Below are positions 58,112 to 63,822 of a stretch of 64,000 bases of DNA, piece after piece. Each line of letters starts with the position of its first letter. The first letter of the stretch is position 1. The translations under genes and the position numbers were made by a program. The DNA is from a virus, in IMG/VR virus record IMGVR_UViG_3300030616_000025, positions 1 through 64,000 of that record; one strand, 5' to 3'. The notes below the pieces were generated by a model that saw only the letters and a program-made list of their open reading frames with translations, made no database searches and was not told the origin of the DNA.

Positions 58112-58669
58112 ATGAGCAAGACAAGAAACGCGGAAGAGTTTAAGAAATCGGATTACAGGCATAGTCCGTTACCGTGGCAAACAAGTGATGTGCTAATGTG
58201 GACTATTATTGATAAGGATAATTTATCCGTTGTGCAAGTGACAAACGGAAACAGAGAGGAGCGTAAGGCAAACGCCGAATTTATTGTTGAGGCCTGCAAT
58301 GAGCATTGGAGACTAAAGGCAGAAAGCGAATCTGCGGAGAAAACAATAAACGCCAGAAATGAATTGATAGGAGAGCTGCAAGCGGAGAATGAGGAGTTGA
58401 AGAGGGATAGGTGCGAACACTGTGGAACAAAGCTGAATTTAGACGGGTGCCTTCTTTGCGGTGCTCCTGTCTGCTGTCCCCATTGTTGTCAAATTACGTC
58501 GTTTGAAATGGAGATAGAAAAGCTCGAACAGCAGAACAAGGAGCTTGTGGAGGCTCTTGAAAACTACATAAATGCCAAATCACGACCACATGGAATAAAA
58601 AACCCAAACGAAATCGAGAGAACTTGGTTCGAATTGTTAAATGCAATCAAAAAAGCGAAAGGAGAATAA
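58112..58669 (+). CDS. mosaic coiled-coil protein (SPLPW domain, Cys cluster, KKAKGE tail; Ea22-like architecture)
   Basis: HSPLPW...ANAEFIVEACN, LQAENEELK, LEQQNKELVEALE. Ends IKKAKGE. Confidence 0.5.
   Translation: MSKTRNAEEFKKSDYRHSPLPWQTSDVLMWTIIDKDNLSVVQVTNGNREERKANAEFIVEACNEHWRLKAESESAEKTINARNELIGELQAENEELKRDRCEHCGTKLNLDGCLLCGAPVCCPHCCQITSFEMEIEKLEQQNKELVEALENYINAKSRPHGIKNPNEIERTWFELLNAIKKAKGE
58646..58669 (+). repeat. junction repeat ATCAAAAAAGCGAAAGGAGAATAA, copy 1
   Basis: Encodes the (I)KKAKGE stop and carries the SD for the next gene. Confidence 0.8.
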
Positions 58670-58670
58670 C

Positions 58671-59138
58671 ATGGAAAAAGAGAAGAAAGCGGAGCATAGT
58701 CCGTTGCCGTGGCATACCGACAGAGAGAGGGCTTTTATATGGGGGCAAGATAAAGAACACGGAGAAATGATTGCAGAGATTAGAAATTGGGGATATTTAA
58801 CGTCAGTTATGAATTTAACGGAAGAGGAAGCGGTCACAGTACAGTACGCTAATGCAGAGTTTATCGTTAAAGCCTGTAATAATTATTATGATCTACAGAA
58901 AGCACTTGAGCACAGAATGGAAGAAGTCGAAAAGTTGAAAGAGCAGAATAAAAACCTAAACAAATTCGACAAAGAAAATTGTGCAAGAATGGAAGAACAG
59001 GACAGGATTCTTAAAAAGCTGAAAGCGGAGAATACGGAGCTTGTGGAGCTAATCAAATTATGTGACAAAGAAAAGGATGAATTAAGAATGCAATTGGCAG
59101 ATGCATATAAAGAGATCAAAAAAGCGAAAGGAGAATAA
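58671..59138 (+). CDS. mosaic coiled-coil protein (SPLPW domain, KKAKGE tail)
   Basis: HSPLPW...ANAEFIVKACN, NTELVELIK. Ends IKKAKGE. The start follows the shared GGAGAATAAC. Confidence 0.5.
   Translation: MEKEKKAEHSPLPWHTDRERAFIWGQDKEHGEMIAEIRNWGYLTSVMNLTEEEAVTVQYANAEFIVKACNNYYDLQKALEHRMEEVEKLKEQNKNLNKFDKENCARMEEQDRILKKLKAENTELVELIKLCDKEKDELRMQLADAYKEIKKAKGE
59115..59138 (+). repeat. junction repeat, copy 2
   Basis: Identical 24-mer. Confidence 0.8.
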
Positions 59139-59140
59139 AG

Positions 59141-59422
59141 ATGAGCGAAGCAAAAAGATATGATCACCAAATTTGCGAAGAGTATGCCGGAGATGCAGAA
59201 TGCCCCGGTATGGTTGAGTCGGAGGATGGCGAATATGTGGAGTATAAAGATTATGAAGCACTGCAAGCGGAGAATGAGGAGTCGAAGGCCCTTATTAAAG
59301 GTTATAAGGAGCTTGTGGAGTTACTTGAGAAGTATGAATTAAAAACTTGCGCTATACCAGATGAAGAATTTCAAGAGATGAATCGCAAGGTCAGAGCAAT
59401 CAAAAAAGCGAAAGGAAAATAA
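59141..59422 (+). CDS. mosaic coiled-coil protein (KKAKGK tail)
   Basis: EALQAENEESK, KELVELLE. Ends IKKAKGK. Confidence 0.5.
   Translation: MSEAKRYDHQICEEYAGDAECPGMVESEDGEYVEYKDYEALQAENEESKALIKGYKELVELLEKYELKTCAIPDEEFQEMNRKVRAIKKAKGK
59399..59422 (+). repeat. junction repeat, copy 3 (one mismatch)
   Basis: ATCAAAAAAGCGAAAGGAAAATAA. Confidence 0.75.
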
Positions 59423-59464
59423 ATGCGCCTCTGGCACTACAAACTAATACCGATACTTGACAGA
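59423..59464 (+). pseudogene. 14-codon 5' remnant of a pyrimidine-dimer-glycosylase-like (TIGR02328-type) gene
   Basis: Encodes MRLWHYKLIPILDR, identical to the start of the gene at 60347. After this the frame runs into unrelated sequence and stops at 59530. Confidence 0.55.
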
Positions 59465-59529
59465 AAAAAAATTATTTTTGTTTGCAATTTGGGAAAAAAT
59501 ATGTCATTATTAAAGCGGAGATCGAGATA

Positions 59530-59631
59530 ATGATATATAGATTTAACTCTGTTGGCAGAATCCTTTTCGGCAATTATCGCCGTCTCGGTCTCCTTCTGTC
59601 AACAGAGTTTTTATTTGGAGATCGAGAATGA
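59530..59631 (+). CDS. leader ORF (33 aa) coupled to the HNH gene
   Basis: Preceded by GGAGATCGAGATA-ATG. Its TGA overlaps the HNH ATG. May be regulatory only. Confidence 0.3.
   Translation: MIYRFNSVGRILFGNYRRLGLLLSTEFLFGDRE
59545..59616 (+). terminator. long-stem terminator/attenuator-like hairpin upstream of the HNH gene
   Basis: AACTCTGTTGGCAG (59545-59558) pairs with CTGTCAACAGAGTT (59596-59609) over 14 bp with one G-U pair. TTTTTATTT follows. Confidence 0.4.
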
Positions 59632-60347
59632 ATAAAATTAACAACAATCTCAAATACGGAAAAAATTGTATAGGGCAAACGGTTATAAACAATTATGGTG
59701 AAACCGGATTAATTGTTGATATGTACACAGAGACAGATAATCACAAAAAATGTATGGTAAAAATAATGTATCCCGACGGAACTTGGCATTGTAGGGAAAA
59801 ACATTTTGTTAATATTGGATCGTTTAAAAAGCCTTATAAATTCGACTTAAAAGAAGATCTTAAAAATGGATTCAAACCTGTTTATGGATGGGAGGATTAT
59901 TATATTATAAATAAATATGGGGTTATAAAAACAATATTTGGAAAACACAAGGGAAAAATAAAAAGACAAAGTAATCGGTGGAAATACAGTTCTTACAGAA
60001 AATCTCAAGTATATAAAAACCCTTATAAAGCTATTTGTTTGTATAAGAGGGGTAAAGAAACAAGAAAAAATAGATTGGTTCATACTATTATGGTGGAGAC
60101 ATTTATTCGGACGCTCAAAAAAGGAGAGCAGGTAAATCATATAAATGGCATTTCATCAGATAACAGACTTATAAATCTTGAAATTGTCAATAGACAAAAT
60201 AATAATAAAAAATATAGGGATTTTGGTTTTCTTAGCGAAGAAGAAATAAAAAAACTTGATAATTTCTGCTGGGATAACAATATGAACTATAAAGAGGCTA
60301 TTCATTGTTTTGTGAAGTCTTTTTTAACAAAGGAGGTGATGCTATAA
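59628..60347 (+). CDS. HNH homing endonuclease (NUMOD4-like N-terminus plus HNH_3-like core)
   Basis: YGWEDYYIINKYGVIKT and LVHTIMVETFI...GEQVNHINGISSDNRLINLEIV. Confidence 0.8.
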   Translation: MNKINNNLKYGKNCIGQTVINNYGETGLIVDMYTETDNHKKCMVKIMYPDGTWHCREKHFVNIGSFKKPYKFDLKEDLKNGFKPVYGWEDYYIINKYGVIKTIFGKHKGKIKRQSNRWKYSSYRKSQVYKNPYKAICLYKRGKETRKNRLVHTIMVETFIRTLKKGEQVNHINGISSDNRLINLEIVNRQNNNKKYRDFGFLSEEEIKKLDNFCWDNNMNYKEAIHCFVKSFLTKEVML

Positions 60348-60746
60348 TGAGGCTCTGGCATTATAAATTAATACCTATATTGGATAGACAAAGGTTGCTG
60401 GGGCAGCATTGACTGTCTTAGAGAATGCTGTGCGCTTAGGGGAAACGGTTGGGGGAGGAAACATTCTACTGTTGATTATGTGTTTGAGCACAAGTATTGC
60501 TTGCTTGTCAATTATCACTGGAATGTGATTGCGGAAATGGTTGCACGTGGATATAATTACAATAGATTGTGGGACAGTTATATATACAGGGGTAAAAATT
60601 GCAAGGTTCGCACTGATGATAGATCGCTTGTTCCTCAATATCATTACCCCGAACATGACGAAGAATATCTAACTGAATGTAAAGAACTGCTGATCGAAAA
60701 AGACCCGGATTTTTACAAACCACTTTTTGAAGGAGCAAAGAAATGA
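60347..60746 (+). pseudogene. pyrimidine-dimer DNA glycosylase-like gene (TIGR02328/Pyr_excise-like) interrupted by a 10-nt insertion
   Basis: Frame A gives MRLWHYKLIPILDRQRLLGQH then a stop at 60410. A second frame from 60420 gives RECCALRGNGWGRKHSTVDYVFEH... to 60746. Deleting 60410-60419 restores the contiguous GQHRECCALRG block. Confidence 0.65.
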
Positions 60747-60979
60747 ATCTGGCGAACAGAAAAGGAAACTACGCGGAAGAAAAGCATGTAGCAATAAGAG
60801 GCGTAAATCAGGTACACAGGATGTGTCCTGAATGCGGAATAACAATGGCTGTCTGGACGGAGGAAGAATACAGACTGCATAGGCACGAATGTGAAGACCA
60901 GTGGGACAGGACGCTTGAAAAACACTGCATGAAATATCACCCGAAATTGACGCGGGTATATGTTCCGGCTATAGGTTAA
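60743..60979 (+). CDS. zinc-finger protein
   Basis: CPECG...HRHEC pattern. ATGA overlap. Confidence 0.45.
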   Translation: MNLANRKGNYAEEKHVAIRGVNQVHRMCPECGITMAVWTEEEYRLHRHECEDQWDRTLEKHCMKYHPKLTRVYVPAIG

Positions 60980-60990
60980 GGAGAGAAAAG

Positions 60991-61344
60991 ATGGAAAATG
61001 AATCAATAAAACGAATGTTAAGTAAAATCAATATTGCCTGGAGAGGATATAAGCCGGAATACTTTTTGGAACGAGTCAAGGAAATACTTGTCAAAGAATT
61101 TGAAGCACTGCAAGCGGAGAATGAGGAGCTGGGAAAGTTGTCTATGGCAAGACAAAAAGAACTGGTTGAAAGGAATCATGCCTTATGCAAGGAGCTAAAT
61201 ACTTTAGAACAGCAGAACAAGGAGCTTGTGGAGGCTTTGGAGGAAGCCATAGAATGGATAGTTGAAATACACGGAGAGGACGGGAAAAATTTAGCGGGGG
61301 TATACAGGTTGACAAATCTTGTCAAAAAAGCGAAAGGAGAATAA
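60991..61344 (+). CDS. mosaic coiled-coil protein (KKAKGE tail)
   Basis: EALQAENEELG, LEQQNKELVEALE. Ends VKKAKGE. Confidence 0.5.
   Translation: MENESIKRMLSKINIAWRGYKPEYFLERVKEILVKEFEALQAENEELGKLSMARQKELVERNHALCKELNTLEQQNKELVEALEEAIEWIVEIHGEDGKNLAGVYRLTNLVKKAKGE
61321..61344 (+). repeat. junction repeat, copy 4
   Basis: GTCAAAAAAGCGAAAGGAGAATAA. Confidence 0.8.
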
Positions 61345-61896
61345 ATGAATTACATCGTATCAGGATTAGAACGATCAGGAACATCTTTAATGATGGCTAT
61401 ACTGGAAGCCGGGGGATTTCCCGTGGCGTATGACGAATCGCGGAAGCCGGACGAAAGTAATCCCAAAGGATACTATGAGCTATTCGGCGGGAAGATAATA
61501 AACAGGCTTATGGAAAACGAAGTCTATATGCACCTATACGATGAATCAGCAATTAAGATAACGTCTGTAGGTTTGACTTTTCTTCCGCGCGAATATGACT
61601 ACCGTATAATATACATGGAGCGGGATATTAAAGAAGTAAAAATGTCCATGCAGAAAATGGCGAAGGAAAAATTAGCAGACAATCTCGAAGAGCTATTACA
61701 CACAGAGAACGTCTTTCTGAAAGACTACATGGACGAAAGCGGATATGAATATATTGTAGTGAATTACAATAGTCTCTTGACAAATCCGGGAAAGGAGATT
61801 AAAAGGGTGTCTGACTTTTGCGGGGGAATAGATATTGAAAAAGCGGAAACGGTTATAGACAGGAAGCTTTACCGAAACAGAAAGGAAGAGAAATGA
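61345..61896 (+). CDS. sulfotransferase-family protein
   Basis: IVSGLERSGTSLMMAIL PAPS-loop-type N-terminus. ~180 aa, the size of small bacterial sulfotransferases. Confidence 0.6.
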   Translation: MNYIVSGLERSGTSLMMAILEAGGFPVAYDESRKPDESNPKGYYELFGGKIINRLMENEVYMHLYDESAIKITSVGLTFLPREYDYRIIYMERDIKEVKMSMQKMAKEKLADNLEELLHTENVFLKDYMDESGYEYIVVNYNSLLTNPGKEIKRVSDFCGGIDIEKAETVIDRKLYRNRKEEK

Positions 61897-62695: not shown

Positions 62696-63223
62696 ATGCC
62701 TGATTACAACAATTTCAAAATCGAGTACGGAAAAACTTTTACGTGTACACTGTCTTATGACTCCCCGAGAAAAGTCGAGAAGGAGGGAAAAACATTTTAT
62801 TACTGGGGCTGTGAGCATAACAATCAGTCCGGGACGTTCAAATGCTCCGCGTATCTCAAAAAGCACATAGAAAAAACGGGTGCAAAAAAAGGTTCAAATC
62901 TGATGATACTTATGGAGAAAACCGACGACGGAAAAACATCGTATAAGGTAGAAACAATAGGCACTGGTGTTCAGCCGCAGGAAGAGACAGAGAGCCACAC
63001 AGAGTATGATGATGAACCGCAGACATATCCAGAGTCAACGCCCGCACCCGTGGGACAGCCGAAACACAATCCGGCGTTGTTGCACTGCATGGAACTGGCG
63101 GAGAAATTCACAGCAACAAGAATGATACAGAACAAAGACAGCTTTAACGACAAGGACGACATGATGAGAACATTCAAGGCGATGTCGAATGACATATATG
63201 ATTACTACAGGAAAAATGCATGA
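62696..63223 (+). CDS. hypothetical protein with an acidic, Pro-rich linker (possible DNA-binding protein)
   Basis: AGAAAGGAAATGAT-ATG start. First gene after P6. No firm motif. Confidence 0.45.
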   Translation: MPDYNNFKIEYGKTFTCTLSYDSPRKVEKEGKTFYYWGCEHNNQSGTFKCSAYLKKHIEKTGAKKGSNLMILMEKTDDGKTSYKVETIGTGVQPQEETESHTEYDDEPQTYPESTPAPVGQPKHNPALLHCMELAEKFTATRMIQNKDSFNDKDDMMRTFKAMSNDIYDYYRKNA

Positions 63224-63822
63224 GAGCAATCATAAGGAGAAAATTCAGGTACGGGGACGAATGGATAACCGAACTGTCAAGCACAAAAGAAGTGCCGTAT
63301 TTCAAGGGGAGTACAATCAAGATAGAGGAATCCTATTCTGAAAGACAGCTTAAATTTGTACATGCCATGTTCGGGGATATAGCGGATCAGACAGGCTACA
63401 CGAAAAATGAAGTCAAAGACATGCTGAAAAAAAAAGCGGAAGTCGACAGTGTAGCCACGATAGACGCGGAAGGGATGGATAGACTGATTGACATTACGCT
63501 TGAATTTGTCAAGGAGAACGATATAACTCTGAATGTTAAAACGGTCGAGCAAATGGAAGCCGAACAGCATGTAGACTTATGTGTGTACAAAAAGGTATGT
63601 CTGATATGCGGCAAACCCGCCGACACACATCACGTAGACAAAATAGGTATGGGGCGGGAAAGAAAAGCAGTAGACAAAGCAAATCCGAACCTAAAGAAAC
63701 TACCGCTATGCAGGGAACATCACTCGGAATTACACAGTACGGATACATACACGTTCAGGAATTTATATCATCTTGGCGACGGATATAAAAAATATTTTGA
63801 AAGGACTTTGTACGGTGAATAG
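63220..63822 (+). CDS. HNH-like / DUF968-like protein
   Basis: CLICGKPADTHHVDKIGMG...LPLCREHHSELHS. Confidence 0.5.
   Translation: MRAIIRRKFRYGDEWITELSSTKEVPYFKGSTIKIEESYSERQLKFVHAMFGDIADQTGYTKNEVKDMLKKKAEVDSVATIDAEGMDRLIDITLEFVKENDITLNVKTVEQMEAEQHVDLCVYKKVCLICGKPADTHHVDKIGMGRERKAVDKANPNLKKLPLCREHHSELHSTDTYTFRNLYHLGDGYKKYFERTLYGE

Follow-up and report, generated by a model that had tools for sequence, protein, structure and literature searches.

For a homing endonuclease gene residing in another gene, the usual view is that only an intron or an intein can spare the host gene. The closest known kinds to the element described here, which lies in a 64,000-nucleotide stretch of viral DNA (hereafter the window), are the MobA element of phages and the mobile-ORF elements (mORFs) of fungal mitochondria. 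The MobA element of T4-like phages comprises mobA, the gene 39/gene 60 split and a 50-nt bypass cassette (bioRxiv 10.1101/2022.08.31.505936). The mORFs have been described from atp6 of Allomyces macrogynus and from atp6, atp9, cox2 and nad3 of Glomus; in them a free-standing endonuclease ORF is inserted together with a foreign terminal gene segment, and what remains of the native segment lies on the far side of the endonuclease. DNA identity between the copies is 64-81% and protein identity 94-100%, and many of these endonucleases share the reading phase of the host gene (PMC3630166). T4 SegG, SegB and MobE are free-standing phage homing endonucleases which act by 'intronless homing' with co-conversion of flanking markers (PMC2988022, PMC2790892), and MobE splits nrdA in phage Aeh1 (as summarised in bioRxiv 10.1101/2022.08.31.505936).

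The window carries an HNH endonuclease gene inside the 5′ end of a gene for a TIGR02328 protein (hereafter the glycosylase). Our reading, which we hold to be probable, is that an I-HmuI-like HNH cassette entered this phage gene together with a replacement start from an allele that had diverged in another genome, that the stub was left by homing-type repair, that translation of the endonuclease rides on the native start, and that the restored gene was broken by a 10-nt insertion. As in the MobA element, an HNH gene lies within a conserved phage gene and the element encodes a diverged copy of the displaced segment (DNA identity of 67-81% for the MobA HomR copy vs 79% in the window), and in both the ORFs of the element overlap the flanking reading frames (bioRxiv 10.1101/2022.08.31.505936). 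However, the target of MobA, the topoisomerase II large subunit, ends up as two working subunits that have gained tails, and the displaced segment is lost, whereas in the window the insertion is near the 5′ end of a TIGR02328 glycosylase gene, the element supplies a ribosome-binding site, an ATG and codons, and the displaced 14 codons persist as a stub. The 10-nt insert of the window also differs in having neither matched take-off/landing codons nor other bypass features, such as the take-off stem-loop and internal SD of the MobA type. The two endonucleases probably belong to different HNH subfamilies, and the window element is an analogue of the MobA-type element, not a member.

With the mORFs the window shares copies which are more alike in protein (14/14 aa) than in DNA (33/42 nt), in mirrored orientation. 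The mORFs duplicate the 3′ end of a gene, are organellar and encode GIY-YIG or LAGLIDADG enzymes, whereas here a phage HNH gene is accompanied by a duplicated 5′ end, which needs a new ribosome-binding site and start codon, and the native start would be used for the endonuclease. Like SegG, SegB and MobE, for which break repair drags donor flank along, the window endonuclease stands alone beside or inside its target; those enzymes occupy intergenic positions or divide a gene into two parts that both work, and a retained synonymous duplicate of the first codons does not figure in these descriptions (PMC2988022, PMC2790892). The kind of element is already known; here, in addition, the restored gene is broken by a 10-base insertion. 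Together with six related metagenome loci the window points to a third route besides intron and intein, used repeatedly by phage I-HmuI-like HNH genes, in which insertion near one gene end brings a re-spelled copy of that end; this would link the phage MobA element and the fungal mobile ORFs as one strategy, and the 5′ version would in addition commandeer the gene's own translation start for the endonuclease.

Anatomy of the locus and its HNH gene

The features of the locus, with the basis of each in brackets, are as follows.

59141..59422, plus strand: resident upstream gene, 93 aa, ending KKAKGK (ORF list, sequence)
59411-59416, plus strand: native glycosylase ribosome-binding site AAAGGA, in the last codons of the upstream gene, for the start at 59423 (sequence)
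59423..59464, plus strand: stub with codons 1-14 (MRLWHYKLIPILDR) of the glycosylase allele resident here, in the native place of the gene (ORF list, repeat comparison, sequence)
59423-59530, plus strand: 35-aa stub ORF, its last 21 codons being unrelated cassette sequence (ORF list)
59465..59627, plus strand: AT-rich cassette leader, GC 0.34 (composition, sequence)
59517-59527 and 59617-59627, plus strand: direct repeat GGAGATCGAGA, each copy an SD-like GGAG before an ATG (sequence)
59530-59631, plus strand: 33-aa leader ORF, its ATG overlapping the stub-ORF stop (TAATG) and its stop overlapping the HNH ATG (ATGA) (ORF list, sequence)
59545-59609, plus strand: hairpin with a 16-bp stem, AACTCTGTTGGCAGAA / TTCTGTCAACAGAGTT (RNA fold)
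59608-59616, plus strand: T-run TTTTTATTT after the hairpin, just ahead of the HNH ribosome-binding site (sequence)
59628..60347, plus strand: predicted I-HmuI-like HNH homing endonuclease gene, 239 aa (Pfam HNH_3, profile vs 1U3E)
60330..60338, plus strand: Shine-Dalgarno AAGGAGGTG of glycosylase copy 2, within the last HNH codons (sequence; equivalents in L018, L020 and L043)
60347..60409, plus strand: cassette-borne glycosylase codons 1-21 (MRLWHYKLIPILDRQRLLGQH), of which codons 1-14 are the second copy (Pyr_excise positions 1-24, E = 8e-5)
60410..60419, plus strand: 10-nt insertion TGACTGTCTT, opening with an in-frame TGA, +1 shift (sequence, profile, relatives)
60420..60746, plus strand: glycosylase codons 22-129 and stop (RECCALRGNGWGRKH...), otherwise intact, +1 relative to the start codon (Pyr_excise positions 25-80, E = 5.6e-12)

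An HNH_3-type endonuclease gene had been proposed between the two copies from the sequence alone, and profile search bore this out: the 239-aa product scored 30.1 bits with Pfam HNH_3 (PF13392; cutoff 24.8, E = 3.6e-7, residues 150-193). The protein consists of an extra N-terminal domain of ~75 aa, common only to P0002, a NUMOD4-like region and the HNH_3 motif VNHINGISSDNRLINLE. I-HmuI, the HNH nicking endonuclease of Bacillus phage SPO1, resides within a group I intron of the DNA polymerase gene and lacks such an extra domain. As a single sequence the window protein matched I-HmuI at E = 0.077, while a profile of it and its relatives (A4) matched PDB 1U3E (I-HmuI) at E = 2.9e-26 over I-HmuI residues 2-124, spanning the N-terminal DNA-binding region and the HNH motif. 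H171, N183 and N192 align with I-HmuI H75, N87 and N96; the family alignment shows no variation at V169, N170, H171, N179, N183 and L184, and the position of I-HmuI D74 is N170 in the window protein. Since the HNH_3 cutoff is passed, the I-HmuI profile matches and the catalytic His and Asn are conserved, the HNH gene is judged intact and its product an I-HmuI-like family member, predicted to be a nuclease.

The GC content of the cassette is 0.29-0.34 (0.286 in the HNH gene) against 0.41 for the window, and the cassette is compositionally foreign. A Pfam search of the 35-aa stub ORF gave no match. The ending ...AAAGCGAAAGGA(G/A)AATAA recurs before the next gene after each of four paralogous ORFs. 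The fold of 59465-59640 had an energy of -47.5 kcal/mol (z = -3.9), and none of 200 shuffled sequences was equally stable; its hairpin with the T-run (59545-59616) is terminator-like and may restrain HNH expression.

The frame break in the glycosylase gene

Matches to the Pyr_excise and TIGR02328 profiles upheld the earlier identification of the repeated peptide as the start of a TIGR02328/pyrimidine-dimer-glycosylase-like protein, and the strong Shine-Dalgarno claimed for the downstream copy was found 8 nt ahead of the ATG at 60347, which overlaps the HNH stop TAA. The further claim that this copy runs on into the gene body failed. Codon 21, CAT (60407-60409), is followed by TGA (60410-60412), which opens the frame-shifting 10-nt insertion, with its onset 21 nt beyond the stub boundary. 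The two halves of the split gene each matched Pfam PF03013 (E = 8e-5 and E = 5.6e-12), profile positions 1-24 falling on 60347-60409 and positions 25-80 resuming at 60420 in the +1 frame, and all relatives read ...GQH-RECC... uninterrupted across the insertion point. With the 10 nt removed the protein scored 142.9 bits with TIGR02328 (cutoff 121.15), covering profile positions 1-116 of 120. Thus the gene as read is disrupted, in that its TIGR02328/Pyr_excise domain does not lie in one uninterrupted frame, and the gene caller used on the public contig left it uncalled. Since the insertion after codon 21 shifts the frame, the glycosylase is, judging from its reading frames, most likely a (recent) pseudogene; this would be the cost side of the element, the target gene being apparently lost here. 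A templated origin of the 10-mer was rejected, since it occurs nowhere else in the window on either strand and does not repeat the adjoining sequence in tandem. A 10-nt insertion was found at no other glycosylase locus or relative examined.

An unlikely alternative to a disabling insertion is that the 10 nt are part of a functional element, disrupting the HNH recognition site and so conferring self-immunity, and are tolerated either by a dispensable glycosylase or by a +1 shift at CAU-UGA-C which would give the product GQH-DCL-RECC. In T4, a nearby insertion blocked nicking by MobA and sequence polymorphisms alone did not, and the insert of the MobA element, ~20 nt from the nick site and likewise starting with a stop/hungry codon, protects from self-cleavage (bioRxiv 10.1101/2022.08.31.505936); the 21 nt between stub boundary and insertion in the window are close to this spacing. 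The +1-frame product also stayed above the TIGR02328 cutoff (134.5 bits vs 121.15), and the 108 codons downstream of the insertion are intact. The prfB +1 frameshift site reads AGGGGG-UAU-CUU-UGA-C, and the site in the window, GGGG-CAG-CAU-UGA-C, is laid out like it. However, the GGGG is simply a conserved Gly codon, and tRNA-His from CAU would re-pair poorly on AUU. The three extra residues would sit where conservation is highest, in what is presumably the catalytic segment. The 10 nt are absent from every other locus, and three other HNH-linked glycosylase alleles do without them. No recoding signal was found at the insertion, and the RNA around it was unexceptional in structure (z = -0.67 and -0.20). 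Hopping is likewise unsupported, because the take-off codon CAU has no matching landing codon on the far side of the 10 nt, AGA at 60420 being preceded by neither CAU nor CAC; bypass with landing on the only downstream CAT (60462) was rejected, as it would delete the conserved RECCALRGNGWGRK segment, and the folds are ordinary. In the reading that we favour, too, the insertion may shield this genome against the endonuclease it encodes, which recalls the MobA insert, and it provides a small natural test of whether insertions near a cut site protect the element's own genome.

Less probable is the more far-reaching version of this alternative, in which the insert would be a second, independent case of the role of the T4 gene 60 gap, that is, an untranslatable insert which destroys the site of its own endonuclease and is passed by a +1 shift at the same GGGG-CAG-CAU-UGA-C so that glycosylase is still made, and in which I-HmuI-like phage endonucleases would be a class carrying spare gene ends and taking over the target's translation start.

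We regard it as similarly improbable that the insertion, or the junction of stub and cassette, is a mis-assembly of a mixed phage population. The sequence is known from a single metagenome contig (ENA ERZ27252234 k141_3008316), and searches for exact matches to the proteins of the HNH gene and of the genes on its two sides found no other assembled contig carrying it. This contig, however, closes on itself with an overlap of exactly 141 nt, and the stub-HNH-gene layout is reproduced in independent assemblies of other samples (L018, L020 and L082; see below). A 10-nt insertion is moreover atypical as a short-read error, and because the 10-mer is unique in the genome no repeat could mislead the assembler.

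The duplicated gene start and its counterparts

Translation and comparison confirmed that MRLWHYKLIPILDR is encoded twice, at 59423-59464 and at 60347-60388, by segments differing at 9 of 42 nt. All nine differences are synonymous and are spread over seven codons (Arg, His, Tyr, Leu, Pro, Leu and Asp) out of the 12 in the repeat that can change synonymously. About 20% of single-nucleotide changes in the repeat are synonymous, and in 200,000 simulations with nine random substitutions in the 42-nt copy the peptide was never retained. Similarity was absent beyond the 42 nt on either side. The upstream copy is a stub, as had been claimed, its ORF adding 21 unrelated codons before ending at 59530. 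Since such a stub cannot be held by glycosylase function, yet all differences are synonymous, the copies would have diverged as working alleles in separate genomes and have been joined recently.

Direct repeats flanking an insert are a classic insertion footprint and the two copies lie in the same orientation and reading context, as would be expected had the repeat arisen by tandem duplication in this genome (e.g. as a target-site duplication at insertion) followed by drift. A functionless stub would then gain non-synonymous changes at ~4 times the synonymous rate; since the observed divergence is all synonymous, this origin is strongly disfavoured and very improbable, and the stubs of L018 and L020, discussed next, group with the alleles of other genomes and not with their own downstream copies.

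Two unrelated viral contigs show the same arrangement of stub, HNH gene and complete glycosylase gene. In L018 a 15-codon stub is fused in frame to the HNH gene, and in L020 the stop of a 17-codon stub overlaps the HNH GTG (GTGA); a full glycosylase gene follows in each. The L018 stub matched an HNH-free allele at 40/45 nt vs 28/45 nt for its own downstream copy, and the L020 stub at 46/51 nt vs 33/51 nt. Between the two contigs the flanks are ~50% identical, which is background, while the stub (41/45), the HNH gene (76%) and glycosylase codons 2-48 (86%) are shared, the rest of the glycosylase being 61% identical; the two glycosylases are near-neighbours in their 5′ part and not in their 3′ part. 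Because the N-terminus is conserved in general, the contrast between 5′ and 3′ identities counts for less as proof of co-conversion, and it is the incongruence of neighbours and the stub comparison that we retain. Thus L018 and L020 share a stub, an HNH gene and ~48 first codons between unrelated flanks and different 3′ neighbours, as when donor flank is transferred with the HNH gene. In a fourth contig, L043, a 43%-identical HNH gene lies directly upstream of an uninterrupted glycosylase gene (ATGA overlap). No significant decayed stub (p >= 0.26) was found upstream of the L043 HNH gene in the 137 nt available (the window leader is 163 nt), so that the stub may not be universal.

In L018, L020 and L043 the 3′ end of the HNH gene contains the glycosylase ribosome-binding site. 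Beside the junction, the HNH-linked glycosylase alleles, and no others, have LLPVLPDKFIIAEW in common. The HNH gene is polymorphic in presence: the window, L018 and L020 carry it at codons 14-17 of the glycosylase gene and L043 immediately ahead of that gene, whereas the other 37 viral glycosylase loci lack it, as do L182, L184 and L185.

The sequence-only reading had seen in the locus the co-conversion footprint of a free-standing homing endonuclease. The part that stands is a piece of a diverged allele beside a resident stub, with comparative support from the synonymous divergence, the layout of L018 and L020, L043 and GC; the intact downstream gene does not stand. The suggestion that the synonymous changes may make the resident copy immune to cleavage is unsupported, and in T4 MobA, the best-studied analogue, polymorphisms of this sort did not by themselves stop nicking (bioRxiv 10.1101/2022.08.31.505936). 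In the window itself it is the all-synonymous divergence that argues for co-conversion. Codon usage did not discriminate between the two window copies as to which is native (log-likelihoods -8.83 and -8.44), nor did comparison of alleles at the nine variable sites inform on this, and the siding of L043 with copy 2, considered as a sign that copy 2 travelled with the HNH gene, was dropped, as control HNH-free alleles split either way by their own codon bias. GC3 along the glycosylase gene showed no clear step that could mark the right-hand end of the imported tract. A sister phage without the cassette was found neither among GenBank phages (blastn, distant matches) nor in IMG/VR, a search of 5.8 billion proteins and two JGI metagenome scans; because the closest glycosylase is only 62-64% identical in protein to that of the window, the window junctions are not alignable at the nucleotide level.

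Although I-HmuI, the closest solved relative, is intron-encoded and in L018 and L082 stub and HNH gene share one frame, as in many exon-fused intron ORFs, we give hardly any credence to an HNH gene inside a self-splicing intron or other spliced or bypassed element with the stub as exon 1 and glycosylase made from the native start, since an Rfam scan of 58500-61500 at E <= 10 found no group I/II intron or other family bar two chance snoRNA matches, the perfectly conserved second codons 1-14 with their own ribosome-binding site and ATG would have no reason, and a product with 59464 joined to 60389 would run into the frame break at 60410 all the same.

Proposed insertion, translation relay and other target genes

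In the insertion from a diverged allele that we favour, the cassette would extend from 59465 to at least 60409 and comprise the AT-rich leader, the HNH gene and the replacement gene start, namely a ribosome-binding site within the end of the HNH gene, an ATG that shares bases with the HNH stop, and the opening codons of a foreign glycosylase allele. The endonuclease would cut an HNH-free allele near codons 14-17, where the junctions of the window, L018 and L020 all lie. On the downstream side the break would be repaired by homology from a donor with the HNH gene upstream of its glycosylase, and on the upstream side it would be joined illegitimately or within short homology, so that resident codons 1-14 would stay behind the native ribosome-binding site as a stub. 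Its boundary, as the probable cut site, would provide ready pairs of enzyme and target for biochemistry.

The overlapping stop and start codons that link the stub ORF, the 33-aa ORF, the HNH gene and the glycosylase were verified in the sequence. They could form a relay running in this order, and because the stub start feeds the chain, HNH translation would ride on the initiation signals of the target gene and so appears to depend on the native start of the glycosylase. The relatives would reach the same end by in-frame fusion of stub and HNH gene (L018, L082) or by the GTGA overlap (L020).

The same HNH family was found beside other genes. In L082 the target is a PhoH-like ATPase gene and the arrangement is of the 5′ type, with a diverged duplication flanking the HNH gene and the stub fused to it in frame. 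In L102, L065 and L125 the HNH gene is flanked by duplicated 3′ ends of other genes, an orientation exactly as in the mORFs. L124 was also above the null in the duplication scan; it resembles two related helix-turn-helix domains and was left out of the count. The flanking duplications of L082, L102, L065 and L125 scored 72-112 against a null maximum of 58. DNA identity between the duplicated segments is 56-79%, and no identical run exceeds 12 nt. Further elements may thus be searched for by a simple footprint, a short peptide repeat, only 56-79% identical in DNA, on either side of an HNH gene.

Duplicated gene start and anatomy of the HNH cassette

The first 14 codons of a pyrimidine-dimer-glycosylase-like gene (TIGR02328/Pyr_excise; hereafter the glycosylase), MRLWHYKLIPILDR, are present twice, at 59423-59464 (the stub) and at 60347-60388 (copy 2). 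As the sequence-only reading had claimed, the two copies differ at 9 of 42 nt, spread over seven codons, and all differences are synonymous; outside the 42 nt the similarity ends abruptly at both sides. None of 200,000 simulations of nine random substitutions kept the peptide, and a single-nucleotide change is synonymous in only ~20% of cases; the duplication is therefore genuine and far above chance. The upstream copy is indeed a stub, as its ORF runs past codon 14 into 21 unrelated codons and stops at 59530.

Features of the cassette and of the gene preceding it
59141-59422: resident gene, 93 aa; its last codons contain the ribosome-binding site for the stub start
59423-59464: stub, starting right after the stop codon of the 93-aa gene
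163 nt between stub and HNH gene: leader, AT-rich (GC 0.34), holding a 33-aa ORF and a hairpin
59545-59609: very stable hairpin with a 16-bp stem, then a T-run
59628-60347: HNH gene, 239 aa, passing Pfam HNH_3
60330-60338: SD AAGGAGGTG for glycosylase copy 2, within the final HNH codons

The HNH_3-type gene with its own leader between the copies, and the separate SD of copy 2, here embedded in the HNH 3' end, were thus recovered as previously described. The stub ORF, 33-aa ORF, HNH gene and copy 2 form a chain of four reading frames with overlapping stops and starts, by TAATG, ATGA and again TAATG, in which the HNH stop overlaps the ATG of copy 2. The leader fold gave z = -3.9, its stability being equalled in 0 of 200 shuffles, and the GC of the HNH gene is 0.286 vs 0.414 for the window.

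A profile of the HNH ORF and its relatives matched I-HmuI, the HNH endonuclease of Bacillus phage SPO1 (PDB 1U3E), with E = 2.9e-26, a match extending over the DNA-binding region at the N-terminus as well as the catalytic motif, and residues H171, N183 and N192 aligned with I-HmuI H75, N87 and N96. Domain, profile and catalytic residues agree in placing the protein in the I-HmuI-like HNH_3 family. Residues 1-75 (59628-59852) form an N-terminal domain of ~75 aa (…GKNCIGQTVI…YPDGT.H.REK…FKKPY) which is shared with P0002, a 43% identical HNH homologue encoded by locus L043 (138-803; Logan SRR13180956 contig, 904 nt). This domain had no match in Pfam or NCBIfam and is absent from I-HmuI and from the HNH proteins of two further loci, L018 and L020; it may be an extra DNA-binding module. 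The P0002 gene has six in-frame TAG codons, read as Gln in the source translation, which implies that TAG has become a sense codon in the phage from which L043 derives; the window HNH gene has no in-frame TAG.

Interruption of glycosylase copy 2

Copy 2 had been thought to run on into the gene body. This did not hold, since codon 21 (CAT, 60407-60409) is followed by TGA; Pyr_excise profile positions 1-24 correspond to 60347-60409, and positions 25-80 pick up at 60420 in the +1 frame. All relatives, including the HNH-linked L043, the HNH-free allele L182 and the closest relative, L184, read ...LLGQH-RECCALRG... unbroken, and this uninterrupted reading together with the profile gap identifies the ten nucleotides TGACTGTCTT (60410-60419), which occur once in the window, as an insertion. 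With the 10 nt removed the gene scored 142.9 bits against TIGR02328 (cutoff 121.15), bearing out the proposed family of the duplicated gene start. The gene caller on the public contig left it uncalled. Most likely the window glycosylase is a recent pseudogene, recent because the remaining 108 codons are undamaged.

A rival reading of the insertion draws on the T4 MobA element (an HNH element of T4-like phages at the gene 39/gene 60 split), in which nicking is not stopped by polymorphisms alone but by a 50-nt insert which lies 20 nt 3' of the nick site and opens with a stop codon (bioRxiv 10.1101/2022.08.31.505936). The window insertion likewise opens with TGA, 21 nt past the stub boundary; that it is a functional, similarly protective insert is nevertheless improbable. 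More doubtful still is the fuller version, in which the insert would additionally be read through by recoding. The +1 product with the insertion retained is still above the TIGR02328 cutoff (134.5 bits), and the site GGGG-CAG-CAU-UGA-C resembles the prfB +1 frameshift site in layout. However, a hop would lack a matched landing codon, tRNA-His would be expected to re-pair poorly after a +1 shift, and the GGGG is no more than the codon of a conserved Gly. In addition, the product would have its three extra residues in the most conserved segment, the surrounding RNA is without unusual structure, and such an insert is absent from all other HNH-linked alleles. Were the insertion a protective, recoded gap, the interest of the element would be sharply higher.

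At 60403-60431 the GQH...ECC coding sequence is a natural inverted repeat (GCAGCAT / ATGCTGT) with the insertion in its loop, and the insertion can also pair with the preceding CUGGGGCAG via G-U pairs; neither fold is statistically exceptional. Elsewhere, the glycosylase gene is frameshifted after ...KRQWE in two viral contigs of 175 kb and 83 kb (L036, 3535-; L037, 4001-), which shows that disruption is not rare in this family; a third locus (L034, 4001-4460) has two paralogous glycosylase genes in tandem, MRLWHYKLIPYLP... and MRLWHYSIIKFLP....

Recurrence of the layout at glycosylase and other genes

A sister phage with an empty site was not found in any of the searched collections. In L018 and L020, unrelated IMG/VR contigs whose glycosylases belong to a different sub-clade, a short glycosylase start is followed by an HNH gene with 33-37% identity to that of the window and then by a complete glycosylase gene, the ribosome-binding site of which is within the HNH 3' end. 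The stub of L018 has 15 codons and continues in frame into the HNH gene as a fusion; that of L020 is an ORF of 17 codons with its TGA overlapping the HNH GTG start. The flanks of the two loci are ~50% identical, which is background; their stubs match at 41/45 nt, the HNH genes at 76%, glycosylase codons 2-48 at 86% and the remaining gene at 61%. In the glycosylase 5' part L018 and L020 rank first or second among each other's neighbours, which they do not in the 3' part, and LLPVLPDKFIIAEW, adjoining the junction, is unique to these two HNH-linked copies. Their stubs match HNH-free alleles of other genomes at 40/45 and 46/51 nt vs only 28/45 and 33/51 nt for their own downstream copies. In L043 an unbroken glycosylase gene begins at an ATG that overlaps the HNH stop. 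The recurrence of the layout and the link in L043 indicate that this HNH lineage has been associated with codons 14-17 of the glycosylase family for long and repeatedly, as a homing endonuclease should be with its target. The homing-cassette reading thus gains from these loci and from the stub comparisons, although its intact downstream gene had to be given up.

We also compared, at the peptide level, the two sequences immediately flanking the HNH gene in each of 139 HNH loci, with reversed sequences as the null (maximum 58, mean 35). Besides the window, L018 and L020, which were conspicuous, four further distinct cases scored 72-112, well over the null. In L082 (2387-3596) the HNH gene is an in-frame continuation of 25 codons from a PhoH-like ATPase, the junction lies directly ahead of the Walker A motif, and at the HNH 3' end the ATPase gene starts anew and is complete. 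L102 (3-1040) and L125 (1730-3340) are mirror images, in which the upstream gene is intact and a diverged remnant of its 3' end follows the HNH gene. In L065 (1998-3217) a complete DUF3310-like gene is followed by an HNH gene fused in frame to a repeat of that gene's final ~70 codons, the junction being at the HPxHY motif. The junctions in L082 and L065 coincide with highly conserved motifs. Duplicated segments at all seven loci have 56-79% DNA identity, many synonymous differences and a longest identical run of <=12 nt. This architecture, duplicating a gene end, appears to be general for the I-HmuI-like HNH family.

Proposed origin, known systems and surroundings

Judged by sequence, the two window copies must have diverged as working gene starts in separate genomes. 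Seven of twelve synonymously changeable codons differ, and duplication in place is disfavoured because a functionless stub would have gained mostly non-synonymous changes. The simplest history we infer, which adds one-sided homologous repair to the proposal of the sequence-only reading, begins with cleavage of an HNH-free allele by the endonuclease around codons 14-17; the downstream end would then have been repaired from a donor with the HNH gene just 5' of its own glycosylase allele, and the upstream end, without further homology, joined illegitimately or inside short homology. The outcome would be the resident stub, followed in order by leader, HNH gene and the gene start that came from the donor. 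As the stub protein is perfectly preserved, either the event is recent or the stub is retained for another reason. At all 5'-type loci the HNH reading frame is linked to the target's native start (fusion in L018 and L082, GTGA overlap in L020, relay through the 33-aa ORF in the window), and tying HNH translation to that start may be why the stub is kept. Speculatively, the hairpin and T-run before the HNH ribosome-binding site may hold HNH expression low unless stub-derived ribosomes open it.

The locus seems to work like two known systems. The T4 MobA element carries a diverged copy of its displaced target segment, with 67-81% DNA identity (bioRxiv 10.1101/2022.08.31.505936). With the mobile endonuclease ORFs of fungal mitochondria (Allomyces atp6; Glomus atp6, atp9, cox2 and nad3), the C-terminal segment of the gene is present as a foreign copy 5' of the endonuclease ORF and the native C-terminus is left as a remnant, the copies having 64-81% DNA and 94-100% protein identity (PMC3630166). 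The window shares with MobA an HNH element bringing its own diverged target segment, but differs in target and lacks bypass features, and we rejected identity with it; a group I intron was likewise rejected, none being detected at the locus. Against the fungal ORFs the window is a mirror image, with the duplication at the 5' end, so the element has to supply its own start codon with a ribosome-binding site, and the endonuclease can borrow the native start. A literature search, which covered few subscription journals, found no 5' version and no homing endonuclease in a pyrimidine-dimer-glycosylase-like gene. The earlier interpretation is largely right, and the element is best described, on these comparisons, as a putative phage HNH homing cassette of a 5'-end-replacing kind; it belongs to a recurrent set, and in this genome a 10-nt insertion has broken its target gene.

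The window corresponds to a rotated segment of a phage-type genome known from a single metagenome contig (ENA ERZ27252234 k141_3008316), with nearly all large ORFs on the + strand. The contig ends at window 61272, the gene at 61345 being at contig position 214, and its two ends overlap by exactly 141 nt (61132-61272), the assembler's k-mer size, which indicates a circular or terminally redundant genome of ~68.9 kb. The joint falls within ORF 60991-61344, and the window extends beyond the end of this only public contig. That ORF is one of four paralogous small coiled-coil ORFs (also 58112-58669, 58641-59138 and 59141-59422), an array with the HNH cassette and glycosylase in its middle. All four end in KKAKG(E/K)-stop, whose codons (AAAGCGAAAGGAGAATAA; ending ...AAAGCGAAAGGA(G/A)AATAA) also provide the ribosome-binding site for the following gene, and two share an exact 27-nt repeat, GAAGCACTGCAAGCGGAGAATGAGGAG (~59255, ~61102), encoding EALQAENEE. 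Two genes 3' of the glycosylase, 61345-61896 encodes a 183-aa sulfotransferase-domain protein (Sulfotransfer_3 E = 1e-6; Sulfotransfer_1 E = 5e-6), an unusual gene in phages. A second HNH-type gene at 63220-63822 (200 aa; HNHc_6 and DUF968 in the public record) is unrelated to the I-HmuI-like cassette; genes of this kind often lie close to phage packaging genes.
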